Part shown: positions 11,827 to 63,880 of the stretch, in pieces
Numbering within the stretch: position 1 is the first letter of the stretch
Layout of the letters: each line of letters begins with the position of its first letter
Origin: Endomicrobiales bacterium
GTDB lineage: Bacteria; Elusimicrobiota; Endomicrobiia; Endomicrobiales; JALOBY01
Reading direction: 5' to 3'
DNA: 64,000 nucleotides
NCBI GenBank assembly: GCA_963796955.1
Contig: CAWCNJ010000008.1
Location: 288,001 to 352,000, forward strand
Translations under genes and position numbers: made by a program
The notes under the pieces: generated by a model
Told to the model about the DNA's origin: nothing
What the model saw: only the letters and a program-made list of their open reading frames with translations
Databases searched by the model: none

Positions 11827-11897
11827 GCGGGCGTAGTCTAGTGGCAAAACCCTTGCTTCCCAAGCAAGAGATGTGGGTTCGATTCCCATCGCCCGCT
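11827..11897 (+). tRNA. tRNA-Gly (anticodon CCC); CCA end not encoded
   Basis: GCGGGCG/CGCCCGC acceptor stem, TAGTCTAGTGG D arm, CTTGC-TTCCCAA-GCAAG anticodon arm, GGTTCGATTCC T arm, discriminator T followed by CCC. Confidence 0.95.
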
Positions 11898-12177: not shown

Positions 12178-13296
12178 ATGCGTCTATCAGACATCCTTAA
12201 AAACACCGGTGGCAATCAAAAACCGGCCGTCCCACAGGCGGCGCCCGCGCCCGTCTCACCCTCAGCACAACAACCCGATTTCAGACCAACCCTGTCGCAA
12301 ATGCCCAAAGCAGAAGCCCCCAGTGTTACCTCCCAGGATAACATCCTTGCCGCCTCAAATGTGTATACTAAAGCCATCAGCGAAGCAAAAACCCTTATCA
12401 ACTCAATAAGTAACGACAGCACCACCACCGACCCGATCACCTGCACTGAGCAGATCGTAAAACTTCTTGAAAACTCGAATGATGACCTGGTGATCCTTGC
12501 CGACCGCGCAACGCCCGATGTTTATCTCTACGGCCATAGCGTGAATGTGTGCATCTATTCCACCATGATGGGCAAAGGCATGGGGATGGACCATGACAAA
12601 TTAGTGCGTCTGGCGAATGCCGCCTTTTTCCATGATGTATGCCTTTCAAAACATTTGATGCTTATAATGAAGAACGGAAAGCTTGCCCAGGAAGAGGTAA
12701 ACTCTGTCCATGCCATATCGCCGCAGTGCTCTAAACTTATAGAGACGGCTATTTCAACGTTCACGCCGCTGGTGAAAACAGCGATCCTTCAAGTAATGTA
12801 CTCAATGAACGAGCGCAAATACGGCAGCCGGGAGATACCCGCCGAGCTCAACGAGGAAAACACCGAGTTCGTAAAGCTCATAACCATTACCGATATTTAT
12901 GAAGCGCTGACGCATCCGAGGCCGTACCGCGACCGCTTTCTGCCGCACGACGCGATAAAAACGATGATCAGCACGGCAGAGAACAACTTTGATCCGGTGC
13001 TGTTGAAATCCTTTATCGAAATTATTTCCTTATATCCGCTGGGCAGCTACGTCCGCCTTAACACCGACGAGATAGCCCGCGTGACCGGCGTGAACCGGGG
13101 ACTGCCCACGCGCCCGAAGATCCTTATTATCACCGACCCGTCCGGTGCGCGCCAGCCGCAAGCCAAGTTCGCGGACCTTGCCGCCTCACCAATGCTGTTC
13201 GTCAAAGAGGCCCTCGACGAAACAAAGCTTAAGCTTGCCGATAAAAAACTCATGCTGGAGCTGAAAGCCATCCGCTGGTGGGTAAAATCACTCTAA
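12178..13296 (+). CDS. HD-GYP-like protein with degenerate active-site motifs
   Basis: GHSVNV, FFHDV, DIYEALTHPRPYR, FDP..YPLGSYVRLNT..RP; HHExxDGSGYP is replaced by MNERKYGSREIP. Confidence 0.75.
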   Translation: MRLSDILKNTGGNQKPAVPQAAPAPVSPSAQQPDFRPTLSQMPKAEAPSVTSQDNILAASNVYTKAISEAKTLINSISNDSTTTDPITCTEQIVKLLENSNDDLVILADRATPDVYLYGHSVNVCIYSTMMGKGMGMDHDKLVRLANAAFFHDVCLSKHLMLIMKNGKLAQEEVNSVHAISPQCSKLIETAISTFTPLVKTAILQVMYSMNERKYGSREIPAELNEENTEFVKLITITDIYEALTHPRPYRDRFLPHDAIKTMISTAENNFDPVLLKSFIEIISLYPLGSYVRLNTDEIARVTGVNRGLPTRPKILIITDPSGARQPQAKFADLAASPMLFVKEALDETKLKLADKKLMLELKAIRWWVKSL

Positions 13297-14105
13297 TGCC
13301 GCGCATTGTCCTGAAGATCGGACCGATAGCAGTATCCATCCACACGAACGAACCCGCCTGGCACCCGCTGCTTAAAGAACGTTACAAAAGTTTTTTAATT
13401 AAAAAACCATTAAAGGCCATTGCCAGCATAGAGCTGAAGACAGCTGAAGAGCGTACCGGCAAACGACAGCTCACGGTAAAGAGTACCCTCGACGGTCACG
13501 AAATATCCCGAAACGATTTCCACTCAACCTCTGATATGTACTTCAAAAGAACAAGCCTTTCATGCCTTCCAAATGTTTACTCCTTTGATTCGTGGCTGAG
13601 GGTATTCATAACTGCCGCGTATAGCACCAGGGGTATGGTATTGGTGCACGGGGCCTCTACCGGTTTTCGCCGTAAGGCCTATCTGTTCGCGGGCGTATCG
13701 GGGCGGGGCAAATCGACCATCACACGGAAGCTCGGCATTGATGCCGCTTTGAGCGATGAACTGACCCTTTTGTCGACAAAGGGGAAGAAAGTTTTCGCCC
13801 ACAGCACACCCTTCTGGGGTGAATTAGCCCGGCCGGAAACTGCAGGGCCTGTCTCATTGCCGCTGGGCCGCATATACTATTTAAAACACGGTCCCAAACT
13901 CAGCGACCGGAGTTTAACGCCGGCAGGATCATTTGCATATTTTATGACGACCATACTATTTTTTTCGACCGATGCGGGATCCGTTAACGGCATGCTGGAT
14001 ACGGCAGTCAATATAATAAAACATACCGGGGCCGCCACCCTTGCTTTTTCACTCAAGACCGGGCGCGAACAGATATGCAGATTATTGGAGGAACGTCTCT
14101 CATGA
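13296..14105 (+). CDS. HPr-kinase-related P-loop protein (RiPP-associated kinase-like)
   Basis: LVHGA, LFAGVSGRGKST, LSDE, TPFWGE motifs; ATG overlaps upstream TAA (TAATG), so a start at 13296 is preferred to 13278. Confidence 0.75.
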   Translation: MPRIVLKIGPIAVSIHTNEPAWHPLLKERYKSFLIKKPLKAIASIELKTAEERTGKRQLTVKSTLDGHEISRNDFHSTSDMYFKRTSLSCLPNVYSFDSWLRVFITAAYSTRGMVLVHGASTGFRRKAYLFAGVSGRGKSTITRKLGIDAALSDELTLLSTKGKKVFAHSTPFWGELARPETAGPVSLPLGRIYYLKHGPKLSDRSLTPAGSFAYFMTTILFFSTDAGSVNGMLDTAVNIIKHTGAATLAFSLKTGREQICRLLEERLS

Positions 14106-14368
14106 CGAAAGAACACATGTACCGGATAAAACCGGGCCTTGCCTGGCGCGTGATAGGGGAAACGGCCTTCGTCTTCGACCCGGCGAGATCGGAACTCCAT
14201 GAATTAAGCGAGTCAGCCACCGTGATCTGGCAGAGCCTTGATAAAAACGGTTCCGCCAACACAGCCGCGAAACGAATTTCCGACGAGTTCGACGTAACTG
14301 TCGAACGGGCGCTCCGCGATACGGGAACGCTGTTGACGGATCTTCAGGCACTGGGATTGATAGAATAA
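14102..14368 (+). CDS. PqqD-family RiPP recognition element (RRE)
   Basis: 88 aa; WRVIGETAFV..LHELSESATVIWQSLD..ISDEFDV..DTGTLLTDLQALGLIE; GGAGG RBS and ATGA overlap. Confidence 0.85.
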   Translation: MTKEHMYRIKPGLAWRVIGETAFVFDPARSELHELSESATVIWQSLDKNGSANTAAKRISDEFDVTVERALRDTGTLLTDLQALGLIE

Positions 14369-14369
14369 T

Positions 14370-15404
14370 ATGCCAAATGTCATGGACAAGCTGTTTGCGT
14401 ATACGCAGAGACAACGCATCCCGCTGATGTGCACCTTTGAACTGACCAAAAACTGTAACCTGCATTGCCGCCACTGCTATATCCCGCACAGAGAACGCAC
14501 GCAAAAAACGCTTTCCACCGCTCAGATCATGACTGCGCTCGACCAGCTGGCACGCATGGGAACGCTGTACCTGGTTTTCACCGGGGGCGAGATCTTTCTC
14601 AGGAAAGATCTGCCGGCTCTGTGCAGACATGCCCGGAAGCTGCATTTTGATATCCGCCTTTTTACGAACGGGACCCTGTTGACGCCTGCCATGGCGAAAC
14701 AACTTGCCCGGGTCGGCGTAAGCGCGGTAGAAATTAGCATATACGGAAAACCGGACACACACGATGCTATTACCGGTCACACAGGCTCTTGGAAAAGATC
14801 GATGGATTCGATCAAAACTCTGCAAAAGCACGGCCTTAAAGCGGTCATTAAAATGCCGCTGATGACTGAAAATTATGAAGATAAAAAATACATTGAAGCG
14901 CTTTCAAAAAAACTTAATGTTAAACTTCAACTAGACGCTGTTATAACAACAATGTCGGATGGAAACAAAACACCATTATCAATGCGGCTGTCTGGAAAAA
15001 CCCTTCAAAAAATATTTAGATCCCACGACAACGGAACAGCCCCGGATGCCGGCGAAACAGACCTGATATGTTCAGCAGGAAGGAATATGCTGGCAATAGC
15101 GGCGAATGGTGATCTGTTGCCATGTATTCAACTGCCGTTTAAGCTAGGAAATATAACAAAAAGAACGATCCCTGGTTTATGGAATAATAATAAGCTCCTC
15201 GTTAAAAAATTGTTATCTATCAAGGCCTCCGATATTGCCGAGTGCAAGGAATGCGCGATGGTCTCACAGTGCCAACGGTGTCCGGGAATGGCACTGGTTG
15301 AAGACGGCTCTCTGTCCGGGCCATCGACCGCGGCCTGTTTATTGACCAGGGCAAGATATGGCAGCAAAACACCAACTAATCTAAATATTAGATCACATTC
15401 ATGA
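14370..15404 (+). CDS. Radical SAM/SPASM peptide maturase
   Basis: CNLHCRHC, FTGGE, TNG, HDAITG..GSW; SPASM Cys set CSAG..GDLLPC..CKEC..C..CP..C. Confidence 0.92.
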   Translation: MPNVMDKLFAYTQRQRIPLMCTFELTKNCNLHCRHCYIPHRERTQKTLSTAQIMTALDQLARMGTLYLVFTGGEIFLRKDLPALCRHARKLHFDIRLFTNGTLLTPAMAKQLARVGVSAVEISIYGKPDTHDAITGHTGSWKRSMDSIKTLQKHGLKAVIKMPLMTENYEDKKYIEALSKKLNVKLQLDAVITTMSDGNKTPLSMRLSGKTLQKIFRSHDNGTAPDAGETDLICSAGRNMLAIAANGDLLPCIQLPFKLGNITKRTIPGLWNNNKLLVKKLLSIKASDIAECKECAMVSQCQRCPGMALVEDGSLSGPSTAACLLTRARYGSKTPTNLNIRSHS

Positions 15405-15491
15405 TCCACCGACGATAACGGCGCCGCGACGAGAAGTGTAATCATTACACTTATGTACACACACCACAAGACCTATTCAACAACAAATTCA

Positions 15492-15520
15492 TTGATTATT
15501 CTTGAATATTTGACTATACT
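15492..15520 (+). promoter_or_regulatory. Putative sigma70 promoter for the precursor and giant gene
   Basis: TTGATT-17 bp-TATACT in an AT-rich spacer, 50 bp upstream of the precursor ATG. Confidence 0.55.
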
Positions 15521-15570
15521 TATAGCGGAACAAGGCGAAACGTAGCTTTTGTATTTTTGAGGAGTTGTTC

Positions 15571-15720
15571 ATGACACTTAGAAAGAAGCGAAAACCTTAC
15601 CTCCCACCCAAAATTTCATCACAAAAAGTAATTGAGACCGCGGCTCTTGCCTGCGGTAAATGTATAGGCGGAAATCCAATATATCAGGCGGCTTGTAGAA
15701 GTTTTTCTAAGATGTCCTAA
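15571..15720 (+). CDS. Putative RiPP precursor peptide, 49 aa: MTLRKKRKPYLPPKISSQKVIETAALACGKCIGGNPIYQAACRSFSKMS
   Basis: Translated by hand (below the ORF-track cutoff); GAGGAG RBS 6 nt before ATG; basic N-terminus plus YxxP RRE-binding-type motif; Cys-containing core; next to RRE, rSAM and peptidase genes. Confidence 0.85.
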   Translation: MTLRKKRKPYLPPKISSQKVIETAALACGKCIGGNPIYQAACRSFSKMS

Positions 15721-15743
15721 AAACGCAGTCCGGTACATCCTGC

Positions 15744-18700
15744 ATGAGCGACACGAAAGTATTCTTAGCGACCGGCGGATCCATGCGGCCCCTGTTTTCT
15801 TCGGGTGAGCCGGTCTGGGCTGTTCCTATATCGAATAGTGAGGCGCTGCGTCCAGGTGATATTGTTATATATACGCGCGCGCGCGCAAAGTTTATGCACC
15901 GCGTTCTGTCCGTATCCGGTGACACATGCACAGTATTCAGCGACTCAGCCGTCTGCCAGCCACACACCATATCGGTCAATTCTATAATCGCAAAACCAAT
16001 TAGCCGCATGCAGGGAACACACGGCCTCCTCTGGGGCCTGGCCTGTAACGCGTTCTATCAGGTCTCCCGTTTTCTTAAACACCGCGCCTCCAGAATTTTA
16101 TCGGTTGCCGCCGTCTTAACTATTGCCTACTGCCTATTGCCTCTTACTTCACAAGCATATACCCGCGTTAAAACCGTTGAATTCAATTTCGGCGGCTATT
16201 ACTCGGCCACAAACGTTGCCAGCTGGACGCCGCCCTACGTTACCATAAACCTGCCGGATGCTATCGCTTCATCTCCCATCAAGGACGCGGTGCTTGATAT
16301 TCAATACCAATCGATCCCTGCCGTCACAAACAAGGACAGTCCAACTACTGCTATCGACGTACTATTCTCAACAGGCAATGCCGCCGGTGGAGCAGCTATA
16401 GACGGCATTGGTACGGGCGTTACTATGCCCACAAGTTCCAGAAAGAACGACATTATGTGCCTGCGTTTTGATGCAACATCAAAAATGACGGCCTGGAGCA
16501 ATACGCCGTATAGCATGAAAATAACCCTTACGGGCAGTAACGGTATTTTGTACAACTTGTATTCAGCCAAGCTGTTCATCACTTACTACTATGATGATAC
16601 GGCAACAACACAGGTAAAAACCGTACACTTTCCGCTTTTTTCGACGTCCGCAGACGGCAAGTCCGGCGTGGCATCCTACCTTGCCCAAAGAGGCAACACA
16701 ACAAGCGCGCTTTATTACGATGCTGAAATACCGGAAATATCCTTCACGCGCAAGCAGGCATGGTTCGAGGTGCGCGGATATCGCCAATCCGGCGGTTCCG
16801 CGACTGACGGCACGATATACGCCAAGATCGGCGCAAATGCCAAACAGGGAACAACGACGCTTGACGGTTCTATGACTGGCTCCTACTGGATCAGGTACCT
16901 CACATCTACCGGAACACCTGCGGGTTTCGCTGAAAACACATACCAGACGCTTAACGTGGTAACCGCTACCAATGCCACCATGAATGTTCTTGGCGGTGAA
17001 CTGGTGGAGACCTACGAGTATAACGCCACAACATTCCCGCAGGAAAAAACTCTTAACTACTTCTTGTGCCAGTCTACCGGCGGCGCCAGCGACCCGGCGA
17101 ACTTCACGGTACCGCTGTATATTAACGAATCCACCGTCACAATAAAACGCATTTACGCCCTGATGTATGGTTCTTATAACAACACCGGCGCTGCCCTGAA
17201 CCTTACCGTGAACTCTAAGATCAAGGGCCAGGCCCTTACAGCGCGGACCTATTCGCTGGCAACAACGGTAACACAGGCGTCAGGCTTTGTGCTTTATCAC
17301 GACCTTACGCAGGGGGCAACCTGGTGGGTGAACGGCTCCTCAGTAACGTTGTCATGGAACGCTAACGCCAACCTTGGCGGTATCGGCGCTGAACTGATAG
17401 TAACTTACACCTACAACAACGACGACTCCTTTACAGACTCTTACAGGATCTGGGGCGGGGAAACCACTAACCAGGTCACGAACGGCACTTATTACAACTC
17501 GAATTTAAACCTGTACTTCCCTGATCCTGAAGTGCCAACCGGCAAGAAAACACTCAGGTCGGCATTTTTCAGATATAATTTTATTCAGGGCGATTCCGCG
17601 GTCACAGCCAACCCGCAAACGACGATCGGCGTCAACGGCTCTGTTCCCGACAGGCAGGTGGTTCAGCACTACGGCACCACAGAAAACTTCCACGCTGTCG
17701 CATTATATGATTTTACCAAAAACATAACACCTGCCAGCACAACTGTTGCCGGAAATTTTACTTTGTCGAACGATCCATTCAATACAGCGGGCATAGCGTC
17801 AGTCATTTACGAGTACAAGCCGGTGCCGGTCGCGCCTTCGGCTTTGACCCAATACCAAAATGATGACGTTACGATAATGCCCCTGGGCGATTGGGAAAAC
17901 CTGCAGGGAAAACATTTAAGATTTACATTTTCAAGTAAAATAACGGGCGATTCCTTATACCCTGTTGTAGAAGTTAAGCCGGCTGCCGGTTCCTTCGACG
18001 GCATTACGAACCTTTCGACCGGAACGGTTCAAACCTATAACGGCTCTTCTCTATCGGCTGATATTTTCATAAGCACGGGCCAGGGTGCGTATCAATGGCG
18101 CGCATCGGTTGTTGGGAGCGCCGGCCGCTCGGCATGGACAAATTTCGGAGCGCCCGGCACTACACACTTCGGCATAGACCTTTCTACACCGGCCATTCCA
18201 GTCCTCGCGACGCCATCAAGCGGAACCGCGACATCAGATCAAACACCAACGCTTACATGGAACGCCTTGACAGATACCGGCGGGTCAGGACTAAGCGGTT
18301 ACCTGCTTCAAATAGCTACTTCGACAAATTTTAACCCGGTGTTTTATAGCTCTATTACTGCAAACACCTCATTCACCTCTACCTTTACCTGGACGCAAGC
18401 ACCCTATTATTGGAGAACACGGTCCCAGGACGCGGCAGGCAACTTCAGCGCGTATTCAGACACTTGGACGATAATTATCGACTCGACGCCGCCGCTGCAG
18501 GTTACAACCTACTTGGCGCCAGCTAATCAGGCATTCAGCTCATCAACGATCCAGACATTCAGCTGGGCTTCCTCCACCGACACGCCGGCTGGGGTCCAAA
18601 ACTACATACTGCAACTTTCTACGGCCGCTGATTTTTCCGCTATTGCTTACTCGTCGGTAACAGTCTCGACCGGCGCAGTAATGAACATTACGCAATCATC

Positions 18701-21700
18701 ATATACGTGGCGCGTTAACGTGCAGGATTGGGCGAACAACTACACAACATCAACACTGAAATACAGCGTGGTGATAGATTCCTCGCCACCGCCTCCGGTA
18801 ACAACGATATCAACTCCGTCTGACGACTCTGCCTCCAATGTGCAGCTCCAAACTTTCAACTGGACAGGTGTTGTCTCATTACCCGCCCCAACCAAGGCGT
18901 ATTTTCTGCAGGTTTCAACGGCGCCGGATTTCTCGGTCATCAACTATTCATCAGCTACTGCAACAAATAGCGCGCAGTTGACACTTAATCAGTCATCCTA
19001 TACCTGGCGCGTGAATGTGCAGGATTACGCGTTGAATTACACGACGAGCCCGGCAGTCTTTCATGTGATCGTCGATACTACGCAACCGGCACAGGTGACA
19101 AATTATATTGCTCCGGGCAACCAGGTGTTCAGTTCAACTACATCCACTACGTTTTCCTGGTCGGCCTCCACCGACACGCCTGCCGGCATTAAAAATTACA
19201 TCCTTCAGCTGTCGACGGCACCGGATTTCAGCGGCACGATCATATCTTCAACGACGCCGGCCTTAAGCGCCCAGATGTCTCTGAGCCAGTCGTCTTATAC
19301 CTGGCGCGTAAACGCCCAGGACTGGGCTAACAACTACACAACCTCGACCTTAAAATACAGCGTCGTTATCGACTCATCACCTCCGCCGCAGATAACTACG
19401 TTATCTACGCCGTCGAACGGCCTGGCGACAAACACCCAGACACAGACCTTCAGCTGGGTGGGTGTGGCATCTTTCCCTGCGCCGATACAAAACTATATAC
19501 TGCAGCTGTCAACTGCGGCTAATTTTACGGGTACGATAATCTCATCTGTTACCGCTGCGACAAGCGCCGTGCTCACGCTTAACCAGTCGTCTTACACCTG
19601 GCGAGTTAACGTGCAGGACTACGCCCTGAATTACACTACCAGCGCAGCGACCTTCAACCTTGTTATCGACACAACACCGCCGCCGGCGGTTTCTACATTA
19701 CTGGGTCCTTCGCCGGACGGCCTTGCCTCAGCCACTACTACGCAGGTGTTCTCCTGGACGGGAGTGACGGATACGCCTGCGCTGGTTAAAAACTATATCG
19801 TTCAAGTTTCGACCGCGGGGGATTTCTCTAAGATCGCATATTCCTCAGTAACCGCGAACACCAGTGCCACGATCGCGCTTATCCAGTCTTCGTACACCTG
19901 GCGTGTGAATGTTCAGGATTATGCCTTGAATTACACAACCTCACCCTCCGTTTATCATATCGTTATAGATACGACGCCGCCACCGGCCGTATCCACGCTC
20001 AATGGCCCTGCTAACAATGTTCCAGTTAACAACCTTAACCAAACATTCTCCTGGACCGGCGTAACAGATCTTCCGTCGATGTTGAAGAATTACATAGTGC
20101 AGCTTTCGACTGCGTCTGATTTCTCCAAGATAGCCTACTCATCCGTAACCGCGCTCAACAACGCGACTATCAGCCTGAACCAATCCTCCTACACCTGGCG
20201 CGTAAATGTGCAGGACTATGCCCTGAACTACACCACTTCATCCGCCGTATTCTTTGTGCTGGTTGATACCACCCTGCCCGTTATTACGAATTTGCAGGCA
20301 GGGGACGCAACGTGGCGAAGCGCTCCTGGCAACACCTACAACGTCCAATTTGGCGACCAGGGCTTCGCTCAGTCAAAGCTTAATTCCATCCAGTACGAAG
20401 TTATCACCGCTACCGGCTTTACGGCTATCCCCTGGACTGACATAGCCGCGCCGCCCATCAACCAGCCGACATATGTAACGCCGTGGCAAGTGAACTTTAA
20501 CGCCCTGGTAGAGGCGGTTACTAATTTCGTCTCCATTCGCGCGACGGATTTGGCGGGCAATACGTCAACGTATACCAACGCCTTCTACGTGCTGAAAGAT
20601 GTGTCCGTGCCGAGTATCGTGGACAATCAATTCGGTGATACCATCTGGCGCAACGCCGCGGGCGCCACATATGACCTGGATTTCTTTGATAACGGCGGAT
20701 CGGGCATCGACCATGTAAATTACAGCGACACATACTATGTGAACAATACTCCCGGCGCCTCAGTCTTTACGAATCGCACACTCATATCGCAGGCAACCCT
20801 GAACGCGACCACTTCGTACATCACCACATGGCAGATACCCGATTTCAATCTGCTGTTGGAAGGGAAAAACTTTATCGGCGTTACCGTCTATGACCGTGCG
20901 GGCTTAAGCCAGACGCTGTCAAGCTATCCGGAACCTTTCTACATTTTAAAAGATACAACGGCGCCGACGATAATAAACGGGCAGGCCGGCGACAACACAT
21001 GGCGGCCAGCCAACACAGGTCAGTACAATGTTGACTTTCAGGATGCCTCAAGCGGTTCGGGCGTTGCGGGCTTTGATATGCTGGCTTCCACCGTCGCGGG
21101 AGGCACGCAATCCCTGTTAATACCCTGGACGCAGGTGCTCTCAACCAACACCTACCTCTATACACAGTCGTGGCCCATTCCAGACGCGGTATTTACCGCG
21201 CTTCGCTCAGGCCACGAGCCGAACCGCATATCGCTGCGCACCTACGATTTTGCAGCTAACACCTCTGCGGTAACAACAGATGCCTTTTATATCCTGAAAG
21301 ACACGATCCCACCGACCATGTCTAACAACCAGGCAGGAGATAACACCTGGCGGACACTGGGCGGCACAACGTACAACGTCGGCTTTGCCGATGCTGAATC
21401 GTGGGCTGCTGGAGCGCGCTACACCGTGCGCAACGGGCCGACGACCGGAGACACGGAATGGGCGCCCAGCTGGCAGCCGATCTTCTCTTCGACCGGAACA
21501 CCGTCCTATAACACGAACTGGCAGCTAGACTTTAATAGCTTATGGGGAGCCACTAACTATGTATTCGTTCAATACTGGGATGTGGCCGGAACAACAATAA
21601 CACCGACAACGCCTGTCTTCTATATTAAAAAAGACAATGTCGCTCCGACGGTACAGAACAATCAATCCGGAGATAACACGTGGCGCAATGCGCCGGGAAC

Positions 21701-47600: not shown

Positions 47601-50600
47601 CCCCCAATACCAGATATCTGCGTTTGAAATCCTGTAACGTTCTGCGCGATCAGAAGATAATGGGCGCCTTAACCTACGACGGCACGACAGCGCCGGACGG
47701 TGACCTCTACGTTCAGGTATGGAACGGCCAGCTGGGTTCGTGGATAAATCCGACGACGGGGATCAGCGGGAGCGCGTACCGGATGAACGCAAACCAGGGC
47801 ACGCTATATAGCGCCTACCGCGGCTTTGATATCGCCTACGAACAGCTTTCAGGCAGGGCGCTGATCGTGTACAGCGACGGCGTTTCAGGCCAGGTTTCCT
47901 ACCGGGTTTGGAGCTCAACACAAAATGCCTGGTCAACCGGCGTTAAGACCCTCACCATGAGCGGTGCGACCGGCGATGCCTACTGGATAAAAACAAAGTC
48001 GCGCCCCGGGACCGACGACATATTGCTCGGTGTGCTTACCTCCAACAGCAATGTCTTTACCGCCGTGTGGCACGGCACCGGTGAATTCCTGAGCGTCAGC
48101 ACCCGCACCTGCTCTACCACGGCCTCGATCGCGACAAAAGAGGCCTTTGACGTCGATTGGGAAGCGCAGGATGGCAGGGGCATGATCGTCTGGGGTCAGG
48201 GTGCGGTAACGCCGTGGAACCGTTATGACCTGTGGTCGTCATCCAACAGCGCCTGGCTGTCGGGCTCCGCGATACCGACCGGCTACACCGGCCCGATAAC
48301 CGGCGCGACCGTCAACTGGCTTTCAATAGCCGCCGATCCCAACTCGAACCGCATAGCGCTCTCAAGCGAGGACAGCGCTAACGACTGGAACGTAACCGTC
48401 TGGAGCGGCTCAGCGTGGGCAACTTCAACGGAACTGACCGCAAATGATTCCTCCATTACCTCGCGCTGCGGCGATATCGCCTGGGAAAAGAGCTCCGGTT
48501 ATGCCATGGTCTGCGGCGTTCAGGCGAGCTCCGGCACATTTAACTGGTCGCGCTATAACGGCACCAGTTGGACGACCTTATCAGGCGCCAGTGTGGACAC
48601 CTATAAATGGTCGGACATTCTTGGGTACATAGAGCTGTACCCGGATCCCAACACTAACAACATAGTTCTGCTTGGCCTTGACCGCGCCGGCACGCTACGC
48701 ACGCGCACATGGAACGGCACCGCCTGGACAGGCGGTTCAGTGTTGTCAACTCTTGTTTCAGGATGGACGGTAGGCACGATCGCCGCTTATCAGCCGGCCG
48801 AACTCGCCCTGGACTTGCAGGACTCAATAGCCCCGACCATTGCCAACAACCAGACGGGCGATACCGCATGGCGCAACGCCTCGGGCCTCTACCGTGTCTC
48901 CTTTACCGATTCGGGAGGATCGCATCTTTCACAGGTACGCACCTCTGTCTATACCGGTCCCGCGTCAGGCCAGAGAGGTAACCAGCTGAAGGATTATTCC
49001 AACGGAGGGCCTGATATCAGCGGTATCAACAGCGACACGTACAACACCAACTGGCCGCTTACACAAAACACCTGGAGCCTTTTACAAAACGGCACAAACT
49101 ATATTTCGATAATGGTTTACGATAACGCGGCCAATCAGACTGAGCTGCTGGATGCCTTCTATGTGCTTAAAGACACCATCGCGCCGGTAATAACCAACAA
49201 TGAAAGCCAAACGCCGGTGTGGGAAAATACCGGCCGTCCTTACAACATCTCTTTTGCCGATCAGGCTAACCTGTCTAAGCTGGATACCGTGCAGTACACC
49301 GCTTACAGCGCGCCGGCCCAGGGCGGAACACAAATTATGCCATGGACGTCGATCGCTAACGTCAATAATACCGTGTCGCTCAGCGCCTTGAACCTGAACT
49401 ATAACCTGCTGTCCGCCAACACGAACTACATATCGATACGGGCATGGGATATCGCGGGCACGACCACCGCAGTAATAGACGCATTCATCCTGCTGAAGGA
49501 TACTCAGCCGCCGGCGAATACGACCACCCTTGCGGCTGTGCAGGGGCCTTATCGCGGCACGATCGACGTTTCCTGGATAGCGCCCGGCGACGACGGTACG
49601 ACCGTATTTAACGGTAACGGCCTCTATGACCTGCGCGTAGCTTCTTACCCTATCAGCTCGCAGCCGCTGTTTGACTCAGCAACGGTCTATGCCCTCTTGA
49701 AACCCGTCGCGCAGCCTGGCGCCATAGAATCGCTTACGGTCACCGGCCTGTCGGTGGGGACTACTTATTACTTCGCGCTGCGCACCAGGGATAAGGTCCC
49801 TAACTATTCCGCGATATCCAACACCGCCGGTGCCTTCCCGCGGGGCGAAAGCGTCTACATAAATGAAGTATTCGCTGCAGGCAACGGCAGCTGGGTAGAG
49901 CTCTATAACAATCTGGCTTCCAGCGTTTCGCTTTCCGGATGGACGCTGCAATACAACGGCGGGACCATCGATGCGCCGGCGACATACAACACCGTCTGGA
50001 CGGCGGTAGCAGGAAGCTCTATACCCGTCGGCGGTATATATGTTATCAGCGGCCTTAACCTGTCGGGGTCCAACAGCTATCATGTCAGGCTTTTAGACAA
50101 CAACGCAGCGCCCCGCATAGTTGATATAGTCCAGTGGCCGGTGCTGCCGGCCGGCTCGAGTTTCGCGCGTATTACCGACGGCAATCCCGCTTTACTCGAG
50201 ATAGACCCTACGCCGACGCCCGGGCTGCTTAATTATTCAACCAGCACAGCGGTCTTCATAAATGAAATAGACTACGCCTCAAACGCTCAGTTCGTGGAAC
50301 TGTACAGCACTTCCGCATCTGTGATAACGATGTCCAGCTACACGATCCGCAACATGAACAGGAATCCGTTCACGTTCACGCGCAAGATCTATCCCTCGGC
50401 CTTTACCGTGATCGACAACTCGTCTGTTGATACCTACGCCAGGACCTGGGCAACGTGCATGGGCGGCGCTTTATCATCATCGTGCGATAACATCACACTT
50501 GAAAACGCATCAGGCCAGGTTCAGGACCGCGTTGTCTGGTGCAATGGCACACCCAGCTACTACAATTATAAAGCAGCGTTGGTACCGTATGATACGCCGG

Positions 50601-52780: not shown

Positions 52781-52795
52781 GGATAGGAGCGGCTT

Positions 52796-55339
52796 ATGAA
52801 GCGTTATGTACTCACTATACTTATTTTATGCGCTCCAATAATTGCCTGGAGCGCCAGCTGGCCTATGTTCCGCGGCACGCCGCAGCGCACCGGCGCCGCG
52901 CGTGAACAGGCAGAGCCGACGCTGACCCCGTTGTGGCAGTTCCAGACACAGACCAACATAGTTTCTTCGCCCGTCGTCTATAAGGGCAGCGTTTACTTTG
53001 GAACGCGTGACAATTCTATCTGGTCCCTGAACGCGCGTACGGGAGCCCAGGAATGGAATTTTTCGACCGGAGGCTGGGTGGACGCAACGCCCTGCGTCAG
53101 TTCCGATACGGTTTACTGCCCCAGCCGCGATCAGAACCTCTATGCCATAAACCGCCTCACCGGCGAACTGAAATGGAAAACACCGACCGGTTCAACAGAC
53201 GTCTCATCGCCGTTGCTTGACGGCAACAAATTATATTTTGTCAGCGGATCGCCGGCCTCCGCTCTTTACGAGATCAACGCATTGAACGGTAATATCATAC
53301 GGAGCTATCCGTTGGGCAGCTTCGGGTTTTCTTCGCCTGCGATCAGCAATGGGGTACTGTACTTCGGCACGAACGACGGGACACTGCACGCCCTGGATAT
53401 TTCGTCGGGGGCCATGAAATGGGAGCTATCAACGAAAAGCAACATCGGCTTCGGCTGCATGGTCGTTAACGCTGCGGCCGTCTATGCCATAGCGGGAGGG
53501 GACGAGCAAACCTTGTTCGCGATCAATCCCCAGACGGGCGCGATCCTGTGGCAGTCCGTCCAGCTGGACACTGAAACCGCCGTGGTCTCTTCCATAGCCG
53601 CGACCGATGACGCCGTTTACGCCATCTGTTCTAAAACTCTTACCATCGACGGCAACCCGCCGGTGAGCGATTGCCGTCTCATCCTGTATTCTTTCCCGTT
53701 GACCGGCGCGACCCCGCAATCGGCGCGCTGGAGCGCGGACGTCGGCGCGGCTAACCAGATAGGTATCGTCGCCTCGCCCTGCATAGCAGGGGACATAATT
53801 TACACAGCCTCGGGTGACGGTACGCTCTACGCCCTGCAGGCCTCGAACGGCAATTATATCTCGCCCTGGACAGGTCTGCCGCAATCAGTTTCCACGGGCA
53901 CCTATTTAAGCTATTCGGGTATCGATACCTCCACGGGCATAGTCGCATCCCCGACGGTATCTAACGGCGTAGTTTATGTGAACACGTATGACGGTTCAGT
54001 GTGGGCCCTGCAGGCCGGCAACGCCGCCGCTCTATCCTCACCCGACAATGCGGATACCGTAACGAACCAAACATTTATTTACGGCACCGCGCTCAACAGA
54101 ACGTTGACCGGCTATACTATCGATTATGCACCGGGAACTAACCCGGCCCCATCGCAATGGGCCACCATAACAACGGCCACCAGCCCGGTGAACAATGCTG
54201 CCTTAGGTGCATGGAATACACGGAGCCTGGCTGATGGAACGTACACCATACGTCTGACGGTAAACAACAATTCACTGGCGCCGGCGGCAAACACCTTCGT
54301 TATAGATAACTCACCAAAAGAACCCGAACATATCAAGGCGGCAGACACACCCCTTGACGGCGGAGGATCTCTTACGATAACCTGGGGCCTTTCGGCCGAC
54401 GACGGGGCCGGCAATAACGACGTGCGCTCCTATCAGCTCTACAAAAGCACCTGGTCGGGCGGTTTCGCTCCGCTCGTAAAACTTAACGCGGGCGTAACGA
54501 CCTACATAGACACCAATTGTCCGGTATACACGACATACTATTACATCGTCACCGCGCTGGACAACTCAAGTGAATCCGGATCTTTGGGTACAGCATCGGC
54601 ATTCTCGATCGCGGACGGTGTGATGATAGATCCGAACCTCGGTTATAATGTGCCTTTAACGATCAATGGGCTGACGACCTATCTGGTGATCGAGCCTCAC
54701 ACGTTCTCAAACACCGTGTATGCAGGCATCAGCGTTCCCGAAAGCGTGACGGCCACCGGGGTGGGAAGATCTCACGCGACAGCGATCGAAAGAGAATTCA
54801 GCGTGAGCCCCGCTAACACGAAATTCCTTAAACCGGTCACTATAAAGGTGCCATACACTCCGTCGGATGCTGCCGGCATAAACAGGGAGAATCTCCGCCT
54901 CTACTGGTGGGACGCCGCGAGTAACGAATGGCGCGTTATCAATACCTCAGACCCTTCCAGCGAAGATGGGAGCGTTTGGGCCGTGATACCGAATTTTTAT
55001 ACCAATGGCCGGCTCACGTGCCGCATAATGGGCTATGTGCCGGGTTCCGAAGAACTGTTGCAGGAGGACAAGGTCTACACCTATCCAAACCCCGCCAAAG
55101 GCGAGAAACTCTCATTTAAATATTATCTCGGCAGCAAAGCCGACATAAAGATCGACGTATATAACGTCGCGGGCCAGCCGATAGCGCACCTGGAAAAAGA
55201 CAACAACCCCGCCGGCATAGCATCAGAGCTGGAGTGGAACATGAACGATATCGCCAGCGGTGTCTACATCTGGCGAATAGAAGCAAGATCAGACAGCGAG
55301 ACAAAAGCTATCAAGAAAAAACTGGCTATCATCCATTAA
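52796..55339 (+). CDS. Secreted PQQ-type (BamB-like) beta-propeller protein with FN3-like domain and T9SS-like C-terminal sorting domain
   Basis: Signal peptide, WPMFRGTPQRTG, SSPVV..VYFGT..W repeats, C-terminal YTYPNP..IDVYNVAG..WN..ASGVYIWRI..KKLAIIH; AGGAG RBS. Confidence 0.85.
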   Translation: MKRYVLTILILCAPIIAWSASWPMFRGTPQRTGAAREQAEPTLTPLWQFQTQTNIVSSPVVYKGSVYFGTRDNSIWSLNARTGAQEWNFSTGGWVDATPCVSSDTVYCPSRDQNLYAINRLTGELKWKTPTGSTDVSSPLLDGNKLYFVSGSPASALYEINALNGNIIRSYPLGSFGFSSPAISNGVLYFGTNDGTLHALDISSGAMKWELSTKSNIGFGCMVVNAAAVYAIAGGDEQTLFAINPQTGAILWQSVQLDTETAVVSSIAATDDAVYAICSKTLTIDGNPPVSDCRLILYSFPLTGATPQSARWSADVGAANQIGIVASPCIAGDIIYTASGDGTLYALQASNGNYISPWTGLPQSVSTGTYLSYSGIDTSTGIVASPTVSNGVVYVNTYDGSVWALQAGNAAALSSPDNADTVTNQTFIYGTALNRTLTGYTIDYAPGTNPAPSQWATITTATSPVNNAALGAWNTRSLADGTYTIRLTVNNNSLAPAANTFVIDNSPKEPEHIKAADTPLDGGGSLTITWGLSADDGAGNNDVRSYQLYKSTWSGGFAPLVKLNAGVTTYIDTNCPVYTTYYYIVTALDNSSESGSLGTASAFSIADGVMIDPNLGYNVPLTINGLTTYLVIEPHTFSNTVYAGISVPESVTATGVGRSHATAIEREFSVSPANTKFLKPVTIKVPYTPSDAAGINRENLRLYWWDAASNEWRVINTSDPSSEDGSVWAVIPNFYTNGRLTCRIMGYVPGSEELLQEDKVYTYPNPAKGEKLSFKYYLGSKADIKIDVYNVAGQPIAHLEKDNNPAGIASELEWNMNDIASGVYIWRIEARSDSETKAIKKKLAIIH

Positions 55340-55351
55340 TCGAGGCCTCGC

Positions 55352-56872
55352 ATGAAACATTTTACGCTGTTTTTCTTAACATTGACATTGATCTCAACCC
55401 CGGCTTTTTCTGTTGAGATACACCCCAAAGCCGGCACTACCGCCGCTACTTTCTTAACGCTCGGGGCGGGAAGCAGGGCTGCCGCCATGGGCGGTGCCTT
55501 CGCGGGATTGGCCGACGACGTGACTGCGCTTTACTGGAACCCGGCCGGTCTTGCGCGTCTGGCGAATACGGAAGTCCATCTGACGCACAATGAACAGTTC
55601 GAAGGTATCAGGCAGGATTTTGCCGGCTACGCGACGCCGTTCGGCAAGGGTGTTATCGGCGGTGCGCTGTACGGTCTTTACACGCCGGTAGACATTGAAC
55701 GGCGTTCCGGCAACAGCGAGAACGATCCGTTCATGCCGCTCTCCAATTCTGAAGGGTTATTCGGCGCTTACGACACAGCCGCCCAGCTCTCTTACGCGCG
55801 TGTCATTAACGGACGTCTTTCAGCCGGGGCGAGCCTGCTGGCCATTTCGCAGACTATTGACAATTACACCGCCTACGGCGCAGCCATGGATCTTGGCCTG
55901 CAGTACGGATTGAAGGACAAGCCGGTAAGCCTGGGACTCGCCCTGCAGCATATCGGCACGCCGATAAAATTTATTTCGAAAAGCTACGACCTGCCCTTTA
56001 ACGTTAAGGCCGGCGGCGCCTGGTTCCCGAAACCAAATTTGAAGGTGACCTGTGACTTGAACCAACCGATAGACAACTGGCTTTCCGCCTCACTAGGCTC
56101 GGAATACTGTCCCAATAGATACCTTGCCCTCCGGGCGGGATACAATTATCTTTTGTACGGCCAGCCGCTTGGTGATGCCGCCGGCATCGCGGCCGGCGTC
56201 GGTTTTATCATACCGTGGCAAAAATACATAATAACGGTCGATTATGCCTTTCAACCCTACGGCGTGCTTGGCAACTCGAACCGTATTTCCGTCGGCATAG
56301 AATTTCCCGGCCGCGCGCCCGTGCGCCCGGCGCCGATATCCGCGCCGTCTAACACAACCGCGCCGGTAAAGGTTTCTACAACCTCCGCTGTTACCATTCA
56401 GGCGCCACCGCTTCCCTCGATCTCTCCGATCTCGCAGGCCGGCGCCACAGGTGCGGATTTCACCGTTCATGCAACTTCGACGACAGTAGAGCTTCGGCAG
56501 ATAGCCGGAAGGACCGTTATTTACTCGATCAAAGCTGAAGCAGCAACGGGTGACATCCGCCGTCTTACCGCAATGGCACGCTCTCAGGCTCTGCTGAGAG
56601 AGGTATCGATCAAGTTTTCCCAGGAACGAACGTCTTCCGACGGTAAAGCCGGAACGTACCGGCGCTATATGATCGAAAAGAATTGCCCCGCGCAGTTCTC
56701 TAACATCACTATTGAAATGAGCCTGCCGGTATCCCTGCACGAGCCTTTCATCAGGTCAAAGGAAGCCGGCTCGCCCATACTGCCGCGCGTGATCTCCAAA
56801 GAAAATGATTCGGCTACGTACCAATTCACCTTGCCGTCGTTAGAGCCGTTCTCAGTGGAGACCCATGAGTGA
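55352..56872 (+). CDS. PorV/PorQ-like (UPF0164) outer-membrane beta-barrel with a C-terminal extension
   Basis: FLTLGAGSRAAAMGGAFAGLADDVTALYWNPAGLA, DLGLQY, LALRAGY, VDYAF..LGNSNRISV, then a Pro/Thr linker and an extra domain. Confidence 0.82.
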   Translation: MKHFTLFFLTLTLISTPAFSVEIHPKAGTTAATFLTLGAGSRAAAMGGAFAGLADDVTALYWNPAGLARLANTEVHLTHNEQFEGIRQDFAGYATPFGKGVIGGALYGLYTPVDIERRSGNSENDPFMPLSNSEGLFGAYDTAAQLSYARVINGRLSAGASLLAISQTIDNYTAYGAAMDLGLQYGLKDKPVSLGLALQHIGTPIKFISKSYDLPFNVKAGGAWFPKPNLKVTCDLNQPIDNWLSASLGSEYCPNRYLALRAGYNYLLYGQPLGDAAGIAAGVGFIIPWQKYIITVDYAFQPYGVLGNSNRISVGIEFPGRAPVRPAPISAPSNTTAPVKVSTTSAVTIQAPPLPSISPISQAGATGADFTVHATSTTVELRQIAGRTVIYSIKAEAATGDIRRLTAMARSQALLREVSIKFSQERTSSDGKAGTYRRYMIEKNCPAQFSNITIEMSLPVSLHEPFIRSKEAGSPILPRVISKENDSATYQFTLPSLEPFSVETHE

Positions 56873-57755
56873 TCTGATCACCGCAGTCCTTCCCAGAACA
56901 CTGCTGATCCACCGGCAGTACGGCGAGCTCGCGAAAGCCTTCACCTCGGCGCGCATACCTTTCATGCTCCTGAAGGGCGTAGCCTTTATCGAATGTTTTC
57001 CGGATCTTATGCGCAGCCGGAACATGGAAGATATGGATATTATGGTGCCGCCCGCAAAATACGAGTCGGCGCGAAAAGTGCTTGCGAACCTCGGCTATTG
57101 GCCTGCCCCGCAGGATCCCGCCGCTCACATACATATAAGCCAGCCTGTCGCGGTAGATTTTTGCGACAACCTCTGGTACCTGGACCAGGCCGAGAACGAG
57201 GCATTATGGTCTTCCGGCTCGACCCCCTTGGGCGACGGAAGCAGGGTATTAAATCCCGTAGATTTTTATGTGCATATCTTCGCGCATGGAGCGATACATC
57301 ATGCGAACGCAAGTTCCAGATGGAAGCAGGACCTTGCCGTGCTCAACGACCGCTGGCATGTGGCGGGTCTGCCGGCGCTGACTGAGCGGCTGAGGATGCT
57401 TGGGTGGGAAGAACTGCATGATTTTCTGTTGAAAGGCAGAACACCGCACAAATTTCACACCCGGATAATGCTGCGTTTATCGGCCCCGAAAGCCGGGCAC
57501 ATCGCGCGGGTTCTTATGCTGAGGCGGAAAATGCTTGGGAAGTTTTTACTGGAGATATTTTTTCCCGACTCTCATTTTATCAGAGGAAGGTATGATGCTC
57601 AAACAGATGCTCAGGTACTGCTGTGGAAAGCTATGCGGCCTTTCTTACTGCTGAAGGACGTTTTAATAACTGCCTACCGACATGTTTTTCCTGGCGCCGT
57701 TAAAGCATCTGCCGAACACATACCAACCGCACCCGAAAAGAACGACCGCCCATAA
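56865..57755 (+). CDS. Uncharacterised nucleotidyltransferase family protein (NTP_transf_5-like, RiPP-associated type)
   Basis: IPFMLLKG..RNMEDMDIMV..LANLGY, H..H..H segment. Confidence 0.78.
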   Translation: MSDLITAVLPRTLLIHRQYGELAKAFTSARIPFMLLKGVAFIECFPDLMRSRNMEDMDIMVPPAKYESARKVLANLGYWPAPQDPAAHIHISQPVAVDFCDNLWYLDQAENEALWSSGSTPLGDGSRVLNPVDFYVHIFAHGAIHHANASSRWKQDLAVLNDRWHVAGLPALTERLRMLGWEELHDFLLKGRTPHKFHTRIMLRLSAPKAGHIARVLMLRRKMLGKFLLEIFFPDSHFIRGRYDAQTDAQVLLWKAMRPFLLLKDVLITAYRHVFPGAVKASAEHIPTAPEKNDRP

Positions 57756-58445
57756 GCATTGCGAAACCACTGAAACGGCCGGCGGGAATGACCCATCGAA
57801 CATTATCATGCGCCAGCTGTTAAGCGCCGCCGTTGTCGGCAATTGCGCTGCGATCGATGCGAAAGGCTTCGGCAATGCTCCTACCGGGAAATAGACGCCG
57901 CTTGCCAGGTCCACCAGTATCCCCAGCAGCCAGCCCGCAGGGTCGCCCCTTTTGTAAAGCATAATAAAACCAGCCGAGACCAAACCAATACCCGTGAACA
58001 TAGCGGCATGTACCAAAGCCAGAGGTATTACTAAAACCGCGAACCGGTTCAGCTGCACCCCGAACACTAAAACACCGACCAGCGCCATCACCGCGAATTC
58101 GCCGCAGGCAAGCAATAATTTAGAAGCGACACCTGAGATCACTATCGCGGCGGGTTCCACCGGAGAAAGGAAGAGATTTTCCGCGGTGCCCCAATACTGC
58201 TCGTTACGCACCAGTTCTGAACCGGCGCCCACGCAGATGGCGAAAAATCTGCTGAAAATAAGACCGGCAAAAACAAAGGGGAAATAACCCGCGGAAAACA
58301 GTATCGTGCCGCTGGGAATAAGAGCCCCGACAAAATAAAAGATCGTCATGTAAAACAGCGAGTTCAAAATTTTGACCGCAAGATTGAAGCGGTAACGCAG
58401 TTCCATCGCTATATCACGCAGAAAAAAGGCGCGCACGCTATTCAT
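57663..58445 (-). CDS. ABC-2 type exporter permease
   Basis: AFFLRD..LRYRF, EQYWGTAENLFLSP, SGVYFPV..LP..LPTT; about six hydrophobic helices. Confidence 0.88.
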   Translation of the reverse strand: MNSVRAFFLRDIAMELRYRFNLAVKILNSLFYMTIFYFVGALIPSGTILFSAGYFPFVFAGLIFSRFFAICVGAGSELVRNEQYWGTAENLFLSPVEPAAIVISGVASKLLLACGEFAVMALVGVLVFGVQLNRFAVLVIPLALVHAAMFTGIGLVSAGFIMLYKRGDPAGWLLGILVDLASGVYFPVGALPKPFASIAAQLPTTAALNSWRMIMFDGSFPPAVSVVSQCLWAVVLFGCGWYVFGRCFNGARKNMSVGSY

Positions 58446-59067
58446 TGCGTTTTACCTGCCCGTTGTCCATCCGGTATGTTACGGCGCCGAGCCTTTCCTG
58501 GTCAAGCGGGTCGTGGCTTACCGCCAGACAGCTGCAACCGCGCGCGGTCTCTTCACGCAAAAAGGCGCACACAGATTCGCGTGATGTTTCATCCAGACTG
58601 GCGCTGAATTCATCGATAATATAGGTGCGGGGTGTTGCAAGAGCGGCGCGTACGAAGGCCGCTTTTCGCTTTATACCGCTGGAGCAATGGGAGAGCGGTT
58701 CATTAAGCCACGGTGAAATACCGAAACGCCCGCACAAAGCAATGATACGTTCCTTAAGAGCGACCTCGGTGATGCGCCGCATCCTGCCGGGAAAAAACAG
58801 ATTATCCTTTAACGACAAAGCCTCATAGAAACCGCCTTCACCGCTGCCTATAAAAGAAATATCCTTGCGCGCGCCGTCAACTTTTCCTTTATCCGGCAGC
58901 GCCAACGTAGAAACAATTTTTAACAGGGTCGTTTTGCCGCACCCGTTCGGTCCGATGAGACAGGCTATCGTACCATCCGGTACAAAAATAGACGCGCCCG
59001 TAAGGACTTTTTTAGTGCCTCCGGGTACCGAAAAGGATTTATAGATCTCATGTGCTGAAATGCTCAT
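58438..59067 (-). CDS. ABC exporter ATP-binding protein
   Basis: GPNGCGKTT, signature variant CSSGIKRK, IIDE, VSHD. Confidence 0.85.
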   Translation of the reverse strand: MSISAHEIYKSFSVPGGTKKVLTGASIFVPDGTIACLIGPNGCGKTTLLKIVSTLALPDKGKVDGARKDISFIGSGEGGFYEALSLKDNLFFPGRMRRITEVALKERIIALCGRFGISPWLNEPLSHCSSGIKRKAAFVRAALATPRTYIIDEFSASLDETSRESVCAFLREETARGCSCLAVSHDPLDQERLGAVTYRMDNGQVKRNE

Positions 59068-59208: not shown

Positions 59209-59640
59209 ATGCCAAAAATCAGCCCCCAAGTCTTTACGGATCCTATCATCCTCATTGCCGTGTTCATCTCGATAGCCGCGATCGGTATAATCGTGTGGGC
59301 TGCCATGAACTGGAAAAAGCTCACCATGAGCCATTCGGAAGCGGATGAGCTTGCTGCCTACGAAGACGACGCGAACGAACCCCAGCAGCCGACCGCCCGC
59401 AACATGGAATCAGCCGGCGTTTTTGAAGCCCAGCTGCAAGAAATAACCTGCCAATTGACCAACATAGGCACACGCCTTGAAACAATGGAAAAAGCACCGC
59501 AGACAGCTGCCGACCCGGAAAGAACAATGAGCTTTACGGTTCCGCCGGATATTGAACTGAAGCTGCGCAATATCGAGACAAAACTGGACGGCATCCACAA
59601 GCTTTTAATAATCCTGACCGACAGCGGGGATTCAAAATAG
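59209..59640 (+). CDS. Hypothetical single-pass membrane protein with coiled-coil tail
   Basis: One hydrophobic helix, then acidic and heptad-like segments; next ORF starts 2 bp later. Confidence 0.65.
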   Translation: MPKISPQVFTDPIILIAVFISIAAIGIIVWAAMNWKKLTMSHSEADELAAYEDDANEPQQPTARNMESAGVFEAQLQEITCQLTNIGTRLETMEKAPQTAADPERTMSFTVPPDIELKLRNIETKLDGIHKLLIILTDSGDSK

Positions 59641-59641
59641 C

Positions 59642-60226: not shown

Positions 60227-60243
60227 GCTACGATATTCAACTC

Positions 60244-63866: not shown

Positions 63867-63880
63867 CCTGACAACAAACT

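Follow-up and report, generated by a model that had tools for sequence, protein, structure and literature searches.

Why would a cassette of peptide-modifying enzymes be wrapped around a 37-kb gene for a secreted protein? The question is raised by a 64,000-nucleotide stretch of an Endomicrobiales genome (GCA_963796955.1, contig CAWCNJ010000008.1, positions 288,001 to 352,000; hereafter the window), whose host genome measures 2.1 Mb and is 81%-complete. An earlier note on this DNA had proposed that maturation of a peptide that is ribosomally synthesised and modified post-translationally (RiPP) and display of the giant protein form one functional unit, the peptide perhaps serving to decorate or anchor the surface structure or to signal for it. 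The recurring association of the cassette with large secreted proteins supports that proposal, and we regard a functional link between the peptide and a propeller protein as very likely, although the partner narrows to the propeller at the giant's C-terminus, to the exclusion of a PorV barrel and of the giant's own N-terminus. Judged from sequence, direct binding of the peptide to this propeller appears probable, and we put at about 0.5 the reading preferred here, in which the modified, exported peptide would be a dedicated propeller partner that binds it as a tether-like surface fastener. The peptide is likely to act as such a partner and not as an antibiotic.

On the forward strand, a kinase-like, HprK-related protein (13278/13296-14105), a PqqD-type RiPP recognition element (RRE; 14075..14368; PF05402, E 4.8e-12) and a radical SAM/SPASM maturase (14370..15404; PF04055, PF13186) precede the gene of a 49-aa precursor (15571..15720). 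After a gap of 23 bp follows the giant open reading frame (ORF; 15744-52780), which begins with an S24/S26-type peptidase domain (15744..16079; PF00717; S26 below) and ends in an 8-bladed propeller of the pyrroloquinoline quinone (PQQ)/BamB type (51638..52777). Next come, after 15 bp, another PQQ-type propeller protein, which bears a type-A sorting domain at its C-terminus (the adaptor; 52796..55339), after a further 12 bp a PorV/PorQ-family outer-membrane barrel with a C-terminal extension (55352..56872), and, overlapping the latter by 8 bp, an NTP_transf_5 nucleotidyltransferase (NTase; 56865..57755; PF14907, E 1.8e-22). An ABC-2 exporter (permease 57663-58445, ATPase 58438-59067; PF01061, PF00005) closes the locus. 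All genes named in the earlier note are therefore present with the spacing that it gave; its right-hand pair of NTase and exporter also stands, with the ABC genes on the reverse strand, convergent with the NTase, whereas the peptidase that it listed as a gene of its own makes up the initial ~112 residues of the giant ORF. We counted the tight spacing of precursor, S26-giant, adaptor, PorV and NTase behind one promoter-like site for a single system; this sigma-70-like candidate upstream of the precursor (15492..15520, forward strand) is a 9/12 match, no better than chance over the whole region. Near-consensus sites were seen by eye at the equivalent place in several relatives, and promoter and terminator counts on the left side are at chance level. 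Misassembly between the two halves was rejected, since three relatives (G004, G006 and G012) have the full two-sided layout on single contigs.

The association with a giant gene recurs well beyond the window. Within the same order, where the radical SAM ortholog is found in 9 of 40 relatives, the giant's N-terminus directly follows S26 in eight of nine, the contig of the ninth ending there. Outside the order (56 loci in 55 genomes), a giant lies at most 3.5 kb downstream in 29 loci, none does in 15, and 12 end too soon, so that 29 of the 44 informative loci have a large secreted protein, against a baseline of 1.7% for a chance giant neighbour in the window's genome. The giants themselves differ: 12 of these 29 have a different N-terminus. 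Among the propeller proteins as a whole, passengers range from short inserts up to 12,000 residues of Ig/Fn3-like repeats, with the propeller constant. In family f24, moreover, the radical SAM gene has been relocated behind S26, and the giant is still next. Linkage thus persists where the cassette has been rearranged and where the N-terminus has been exchanged, which points to the terminal propeller as the constant partner. S26 and the NTase are direct neighbours in loci L091 and L099, and in L085, L095 and L104 the ABC genes separate S26 from the giant, which further indicates that the two halves are one cassette.

Across 401 Elusimicrobiota genomes, many of them incomplete and, as kin, not independent, so that we give counts rather than a probability, the precursor was found in 65 and the giant-terminal propeller, in single copy, in 60; 56 have both, nine the precursor only and four the propeller only. 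Family f24 contains 28 genomes with both, three and one with a single member of the pair and 15 with neither, and the sparse families match genome by genome (f29, 2/48; f27, 1/10; f19, 1/11; f25, 2/9), while neither was found in f10 (0/89) or f20 (0/118). The propeller is also retained in 13 of the 15 genomes whose locus has no giant within 3.5 kb; in four genomes (G069, G264, G339 and G380) a contig break may hide the linkage, and elsewhere unrelated genes follow the cassette. PorV served as a control: it is present in 377 of the 401 genomes, generic in the phylum, and was rejected as a specific partner.

Pairing with a propeller protein is not restricted to Elusimicrobiota. We scanned metagenomes with a motif designed to miss the Elusimicrobiota type and obtained at least 121 stretches, of which 80 flanked loci (81 matches) were analysed and 41 left out. 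Many of these precursors adjoin an unannotated secreted family, labelled DW from its N-terminal motif, which comprises at least 1,244 homologs of 570-1,320 aa with no Pfam match. A DW gene lies within 1.5 kb in 33 of the 81 precursor matches listed; where both flanks reach at least 1.5 kb (34 listed matches), DW is in the locus in 23 and within 1.5 kb in 19, and nine of those 19 close pairs have no enzyme gene nearby. Members include L157:2367-4082 (reverse strand) and 22 more, for example in L109, L115, L119, L145 and L149, and L145 holds two precursor-DW pairs. The taxon is likely Acidobacteriota, a thinly supported assignment with only two named members seen, both Terriglobales. In a third, GC-rich clade, a propeller-ended secreted protein is encoded inside the cassette (L125, L176, L178 and L182). 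The radical SAM enzymes of the metagenomic clades are 31-41% identical to that of the window.

Could this distribution arise with no functional link, an ancestral RiPP cassette of the ordinary kind having taken up a giant operon that was then inherited or lost with it as a block? Giant genes and PorV paralogs are indeed common in the host genome (29 stop-free frames of at least 1,500 aa, on contigs C3, C4, C5, C6, C7 and C9 of G000, and 22 PorV matches), neighbours such as the HD-GYP gene are likewise syntenic within the class, and the cassettes of L091 and L099 are closed, with S26 beside the NTase. This explanation is, however, already weakened by co-retention after separation, even if some of those 13 cases may be contig breaks, and by the precursor's pairing with related propellers in two further clades, and we consider it improbable. 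Joint retention and loss, together with pairing beside related propellers elsewhere, suggest instead that the peptide is likely to bind these proteins. A peptide that is co-regulated with the surface protein and stays unbound, whether exported as a signal or decorating the surface independently, would account for the HD-GYP or HD-domain genes that border many cassettes, for the polysaccharide export locus that follows the cassette in the window, G004, G006 and G042, and for the outcome of the mirror test described below. It fits poorly with enzyme-free precursors beside individual DW genes (9/34 listed well-flanked matches) and with the absence of a recurring sensor kinase or regulator in the cassettes examined, where no systematic search for these was made, and we regard it as unlikely.

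The propeller fold itself suggests another role for the product. The giant's last 380 residues are modelled as an 8-bladed PQQ/BamB-type propeller (predicted local distance difference test score, pLDDT, 89.9), with structural matches at Z 37.3 to YxaL and Bagel8 (7eq5, root-mean-square deviation (rmsd) 1.8, 315 residues aligned). DW proteins, in which a short N-terminal segment precedes the propeller and which have conserved cysteines and variable inserts, are modelled with the same 8-bladed PQQ/BamB fold (pLDDT 81.9; Z 27.9, rmsd 2.5, 338 aligned). The DW profile is nearer to the giant propeller, which it matched at 95% (E 2e-8, 196 columns), than to the adaptor propeller, matched at 70% (E 4e-5). 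With a DW hidden Markov model nothing significant was found among the window's proteins, and only the giant end of G004 scored (E 3.6e-5); the relation between giant and DW therefore rests on profile and fold comparison. PQQ binds 8-bladed propellers, and the product might be a PQQ-like prosthetic group in an otherwise empty quinoprotein-type propeller, which would make the tip of the surface protein chemically active. The PQQ-type fold of both the giant-terminal and the DW partner domains agrees with this, the pairing of precursor and propeller suits a stoichiometric cofactor, and PQQ itself derives from a peptide through the action of PqqD together with a radical SAM/SPASM enzyme (PMC8326336, sections available). 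Nevertheless, the best structural matches are non-enzymatic (YxaL and BamB; Z 37 versus 25-27 for dehydrogenases), the peptide core is variable outside Cys, Lys and Ser, the cassette contains no oxidase or further protease, and the propeller has no conserved cysteines. A cofactor role thus seems unlikely.

The peptide that would fill the role of propeller partner belongs to an orphan family of 2,064 proteins (568 representatives at 50% identity), which matched no NCBIfam model and falls in unnamed ESM Atlas clusters; the window's genome has one copy. In 68 sequences the residues Y10, P13, E22, L26, C28, K30, C31, C42 and S49 are invariant, and the precursor consists of a YxxP leader, an Ala-Leu-Ala followed by Cys, and a core that ends in Ser. 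The predicted core is 21-24 residues long and contains a Lys at +3 besides three Cys (22 residues, three Cys and one Lys in the window), and two or three Cys are conserved. Small residues at -3 and -1 are the signal-peptidase rule; here, position -3 before the first Cys is Ala in 63/68 and position -1 is Ala, Ser or Gly in 68/68. A lipobox reading of the precursor was dropped, with Leu at -2 instead of -3.

The tailoring enzymes retain the motifs of their families. A Walker A motif is present in 39/53 kinase-like proteins and an acidic metal motif in 47/53; the radical SAM family has CxxxCxxC in 63/64 and the full SPASM cysteine set; and the NTase has a DxD motif and belongs to a family, NTP_transf_5, found in 61 of the 65 precursor-bearing genomes. 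No solved-structure relative of the kinase or the NTase was found by sequence. In L085, L095, L104, L157, L158 and L181 the ABC-2 genes lie inside the cassette and share its strand. Pseudomycoidin receives a phosphate on its C-terminal Ser from the HprK-family kinase PsmK, and one or two hexoses are attached to the Ser phosphate in a step that needs the NTP transferase PsmN (PMC6993621, in the part available). As the C-terminal Ser is near-invariant here (68/68 and 141/148 in two sequence sets, and 80/80 of the complete metagenomic matches listed), the same order of steps is predicted by analogy: the kinase-like protein would phosphorylate this residue, and the NTase would then act on the phosphorylated Ser.

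Removal of the leader falls, in our proposal, to S26. There is no internal ATG in this region, in which the domain is followed by an amphipathic stretch and then by a signal peptide of ordinary type; the domain is fused in frame to the giant in the window and in 6/8 relatives; the two are separate in G004 and G012. PF00717 was found in seven of nine aligned members at E<=0.1, with Ser/His motifs present, and the ESM Atlas cluster for the peptidase is S24/S26. Across 56 homologs the nucleophile position is Ser or Cys and the His is conserved, which suggests an active enzyme. Because the domain precedes the basic region of the signal peptide, it is likely to be cytoplasmic, and a leader peptidase rather than the signal peptidase of the giant. 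An independent S26 fusion occurs in L102 (6075-8786), where the domain is joined to a BNR/Vps10 propeller protein of ~900 aa that also contains a FlgD-Ig domain; two PorV genes come next. In five loci of family f11 (L032, L039, L043, L044 and L045) an AAA ATPase, which we take to be ExeA-like, lies between S26 and the giant gene.

SipW is a dedicated signal peptidase for TasA, and the enzymes could likewise serve the giant itself, with S26 as its signal peptidase and the kinase and NTase modifying its Ser/Thr-rich chain (22.6% Ser plus Thr). The fusion of S26 to the giant and, independently, to another secreted protein, a weak match to TIGR02228, and the precedent of QhpD, by which a protein subunit is cross-linked (PMC8326336, sections available), are in keeping with such a role. 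The giant's signal cleavage site would, however, face out, on the other side from a cytoplasmic S26, while the precursor itself offers a matching Ala-x-Ala site and an invariant Ser, and an RRE is present in every case. We therefore think it improbable that the giant is the substrate of these enzymes.

The 37-kb giant gene of the earlier note spans 15744-52780 and is here represented by five ORFs with five frameshifts. Downstream of S26 (16080..52780, forward strand; ~12,300 codons for the gene), a signal peptide is followed by Ig/Fn3-like repeats with a ~357-aa tandem unit and by lamin-tail domains, and a Pfam/TIGRFAM profile scan detected no sorting domain at the end. The frameshifts near 29510 and 30017 correspond to 2-nt and 1-nt losses relative to the gene's own repeat copies, and those near 37440, 37535 and 45780 were deduced from frame reading. 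An alternative genetic code was rejected as their cause, because the stops are of mixed kinds and the reading frame changes. The breaks are probably assembly errors rather than decay, because in relatives frames stay open for as much as 10,482 aa: the giants of G004, G006 and G012 measure 10,468, 4,161 and 10,482 aa, and 14 of 59 terminal-domain frames in relatives are open over at least 8,000 aa. Among 40 loci with matches to proteins of relatives, three appeared to be split; of these, two are adjacent ABC paralogs and one is a real frameshift. Elusimicrobiota proteins above 10,000 aa, giant genes split by assembly errors, and giants with N-terminal peptidases (C39 or S8) have been reported, in a preprint whose main text, as far as available, does not mention RiPPs, PqqD, PorV or type IX secretion (10.1101/2023.11.21.568195). 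Compared with the giants of Omnitrophota and related phyla, the N-terminal peptidase here is of the S24/S26 type and part of a peptide cassette. Other large frames were noted in passing: a ~52-kb multi-piece giant on G000 C4 (114211-166238) and frames of 6,495, 6,950 and 8,846 aa, an NTP_transf_5-like match within a 25,362-aa open frame (G398:C10:209744-210013) and a PorV match within a 5,774-aa open frame (G326:C1:2592827-2593690).

How might a giant without a sorting domain reach the surface? The adjacent adaptor matches PF13360, PF18962 and TIGR04183 above cut-off (TIGR04183, 38.8 bits, cut-off 23), and the ORF after the giant aligns with the adaptor family in 27 of 30 loci, the other three having a small intervening ORF. 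In L234, L235 and L245, short ORFs, presumably of the four-helix-bundle intervening-sequence protein type, are inserted between giant and adaptor, after the giant's stop. PorV matches NF033709 at 154 bits (cut-off 90), and a divergent SprA-like ORF of 1,828 aa (G000:C8:81419-86902) matches in four colinear pieces, below cut-off (best E 9e-16); this protein is a candidate translocon of a minimal type IX-like system in Elusimicrobiota. The adaptor next to the giant, PorV and the divergent SprA-like gene together make up a plausible export route for the giant, for which the adaptor is predicted to act as display adaptor. The route resembles type IX secretion in its PorV above cut-off, in the type-A sorting domain on the adaptor and in the SprA-like gene elsewhere in the genome, and differs from it in that SprA is below cut-off and that no sorting domain was detected on the giant or on DW.

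Taking these elements together, we propose the following sequence of events. The RRE would hold the YxxP leader while the radical SAM enzyme cross-links core cysteines; the kinase would phosphorylate the C-terminal Ser, and the NTase would add a sugar or nucleotide to the Ser phosphate, much as hexose addition in pseudomycoidin needs PsmN. The membrane-associated S26 domain would cut after Ala-Leu-Ala, freeing an N-terminal Cys, and the ABC-2 pair would export the finished peptide. The giant would pass through Sec, where S26 and the signal peptide would be shed, and would then travel to the surface by the PorV/SprA-like route together with the adaptor, which combines a propeller with a sorting domain. 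Finally, the cyclic end of the peptide could dock in the propeller and its phosphoserine end could link to a surface glycan or lipid. We prefer a tether-like partner, since the propeller is constant, the passengers are variable and the peptide is two-ended.

The tether role is the weakest step of this proposal, and several observations weigh against the proposal as a whole. In Elusimicrobiota, 15 of the 44 informative loci have no adjacent giant, the propeller was not found in G043 and G178 with the query used, and the phylum profile may reflect a few joint-loss events, as kin are not independent. NTP_transf_5 also occurs in 46 of 336 genomes that lack the precursor, and the window's own giant may be a pseudogene. 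The metagenomic sample was selected on the precursor, so that its counts run from precursor to DW only, and 11 of the 34 well-flanked listed precursors have no DW gene in the locus. The profile match between giant and DW may stem from generic blade repeats. In a mirror test over 19 pairs, peptide and DW similarity correlated at rho 0.15, with 642 of 5000 permutations as high, which gives no support for specific pairing and weighs against a tight lock-and-key fit. One peptide is also a slight tether for a 1-MDa protein, and the steps of binding, expression and chemistry are all predictions from sequence. It is a tentative and, in our view, rather doubtful extension that the system represents a new, widespread RiPP class with a structural role in the envelope, its product being a peptide stapled by the radical SAM enzyme and capped by a sugar or nucleotide on its phosphoserine, which would dock in secreted PQQ-type propellers and fasten them to the surface. 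No less tentatively, such a class would span proteins from 600 residues in Acidobacteriota to 1-MDa giants in Elusimicrobiota.

The surroundings of the cassette were also surveyed. Upstream, an HD-GYP-like protein (12178-13296) overlaps the kinase start by 19 bp, and such a gene lies upstream of the cassette in most same-class genomes. It is preceded by a G+C-rich stretch up to 12177 with inverted segments and three imperfect short repeats, without Rfam match, and by a tRNA gene (11827-11897; anticodon CCC, read by eye), the only match of the Rfam scan. Directly after the ABC pair lies a polysaccharide export locus (59209-64000) with a CBM48 protein, Wza with an N-terminal extension and Wzc; it likewise follows the cassette in G004 and G006, and G042 has wza/wzc-like genes in that place.

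Radical SAM RiPPs have mostly been sought as antibiotics, signals or small cofactors, whereas the genetic partner here, in at least three clades, is a secreted propeller. The association provides a testable function for the orphan precursor family and for kinase-plus-NTase tailoring, and likewise for the unannotated secreted DW family, which is worth a study of its own. It also points to a possible route for the display of giant proteins without a sorting domain and, if true, to a display system that would join those based on sortase, lipoprotein and type IX anchoring. Acidobacteriota-type pairs are small (a 60-aa precursor, a 600-aa propeller and five enzymes) and could be rebuilt in E. coli, which would be hard with the 37-kb gene. 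Even without a tether, a new radical SAM subfamily and an S26 leader peptidase that exchanges Ser and Cys are of interest for their chemistry.

Which known systems does the cassette resemble? The general marks of a radical SAM RiPP are present, namely a short conserved precursor encoded in one cassette with an RRE and a SPASM enzyme. We found no published description of this system in the literature searched, which did not extend to subscription papers or supplements, and term look-ups in the available parts of PMC7470986 and PMC9062424 gave no match; genome-mining supplements may list the precursor family without a name. Its parts are of known types, and what is undescribed in that literature is a peptide pathway paired with secreted propellers across clades. 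Novelty as a new category of system depends on the peptide-propeller link being functional.

The earlier note had likened the enzymes to the SynChlorMet cassette. The resemblance to SynChlorMet, HPr-rel-A/B and GeoRSP systems holds in that they share a kinase-like protein, a stand-alone PqqD and a radical SAM/SPASM enzyme, but matches to ScmC, ScmD, ScmE/F, HprK_rel_A/B, PqqD_rel_X and GeoRSP_rSAM were weak, every model falling below cut-off. ScmC (TIGR04249) scored 23.6 bits against a cut-off of 125, ScmD (TIGR04248) 17.9 against 100, and ScmE and ScmF 112.9 and 71 against 400; the SynChlorMet cassette reportedly has two radical SAM enzymes, ScmE and ScmF, and here there is one. HprK_rel_A reached 19.4 bits of 200, PqqD_rel_X 32.4 of 35, a near miss, and the GeoRSP radical SAM/SPASM model TIGR04303 110.6 of 400.

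With the paeninodin and pseudomycoidin lasso clusters (PadeK/PsmK, PsmN), the cassette shares an RRE, an HprK-family kinase, an NTP transferase, an ABC exporter and a precursor that ends in Ser (PMC6993621, in the part available), and the tailoring set of that type was found here as terminal Ser, HprK-like kinase motifs and the NTP transferase PF14907. In place of a lasso cyclase and B2 protease it has a radical SAM/SPASM enzyme along with an S24/S26 peptidase, and it further differs from those clusters in its Cys-rich core and paired secreted propeller. As the earlier note had said, no lasso cyclase is present: neither this nor a B2 protease had a match in the scan of 19 proteins or protein pieces from the locus, to which the search was confined. 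PQQ biosynthesis and quinoproteins offer the stand-alone PqqD with a SPASM enzyme and a partner of the PQQ-type 8-bladed propeller fold; the window's predicted core, however, has no Glu for a Glu-Tyr link, the PqqE model scored 93.6 bits against a cut-off of 381, and no PqqB/C match was found among the locus proteins.

Ranthipeptides, sactipeptides and the QhpD system have in common with the cassette a SPASM enzyme and a Cys-containing substrate, and for the locus enzyme the PapB, AlbA, SkfB and SCIFF models were far below cut-off. Here, unlike in ranthipeptide and QhpD systems, a kinase, an NTase and S26 are added, and the partner has structural repeats and no detected heme domain. The QhpD substrate is said to be a small exported subunit beside a propeller subunit. 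QhpD forms thioethers in part of the periplasmic quinohemoprotein amine dehydrogenase (PMC8326336, sections available), and by analogy it is the nearest precedent for the cross-linking of one part of an exported protein complex.

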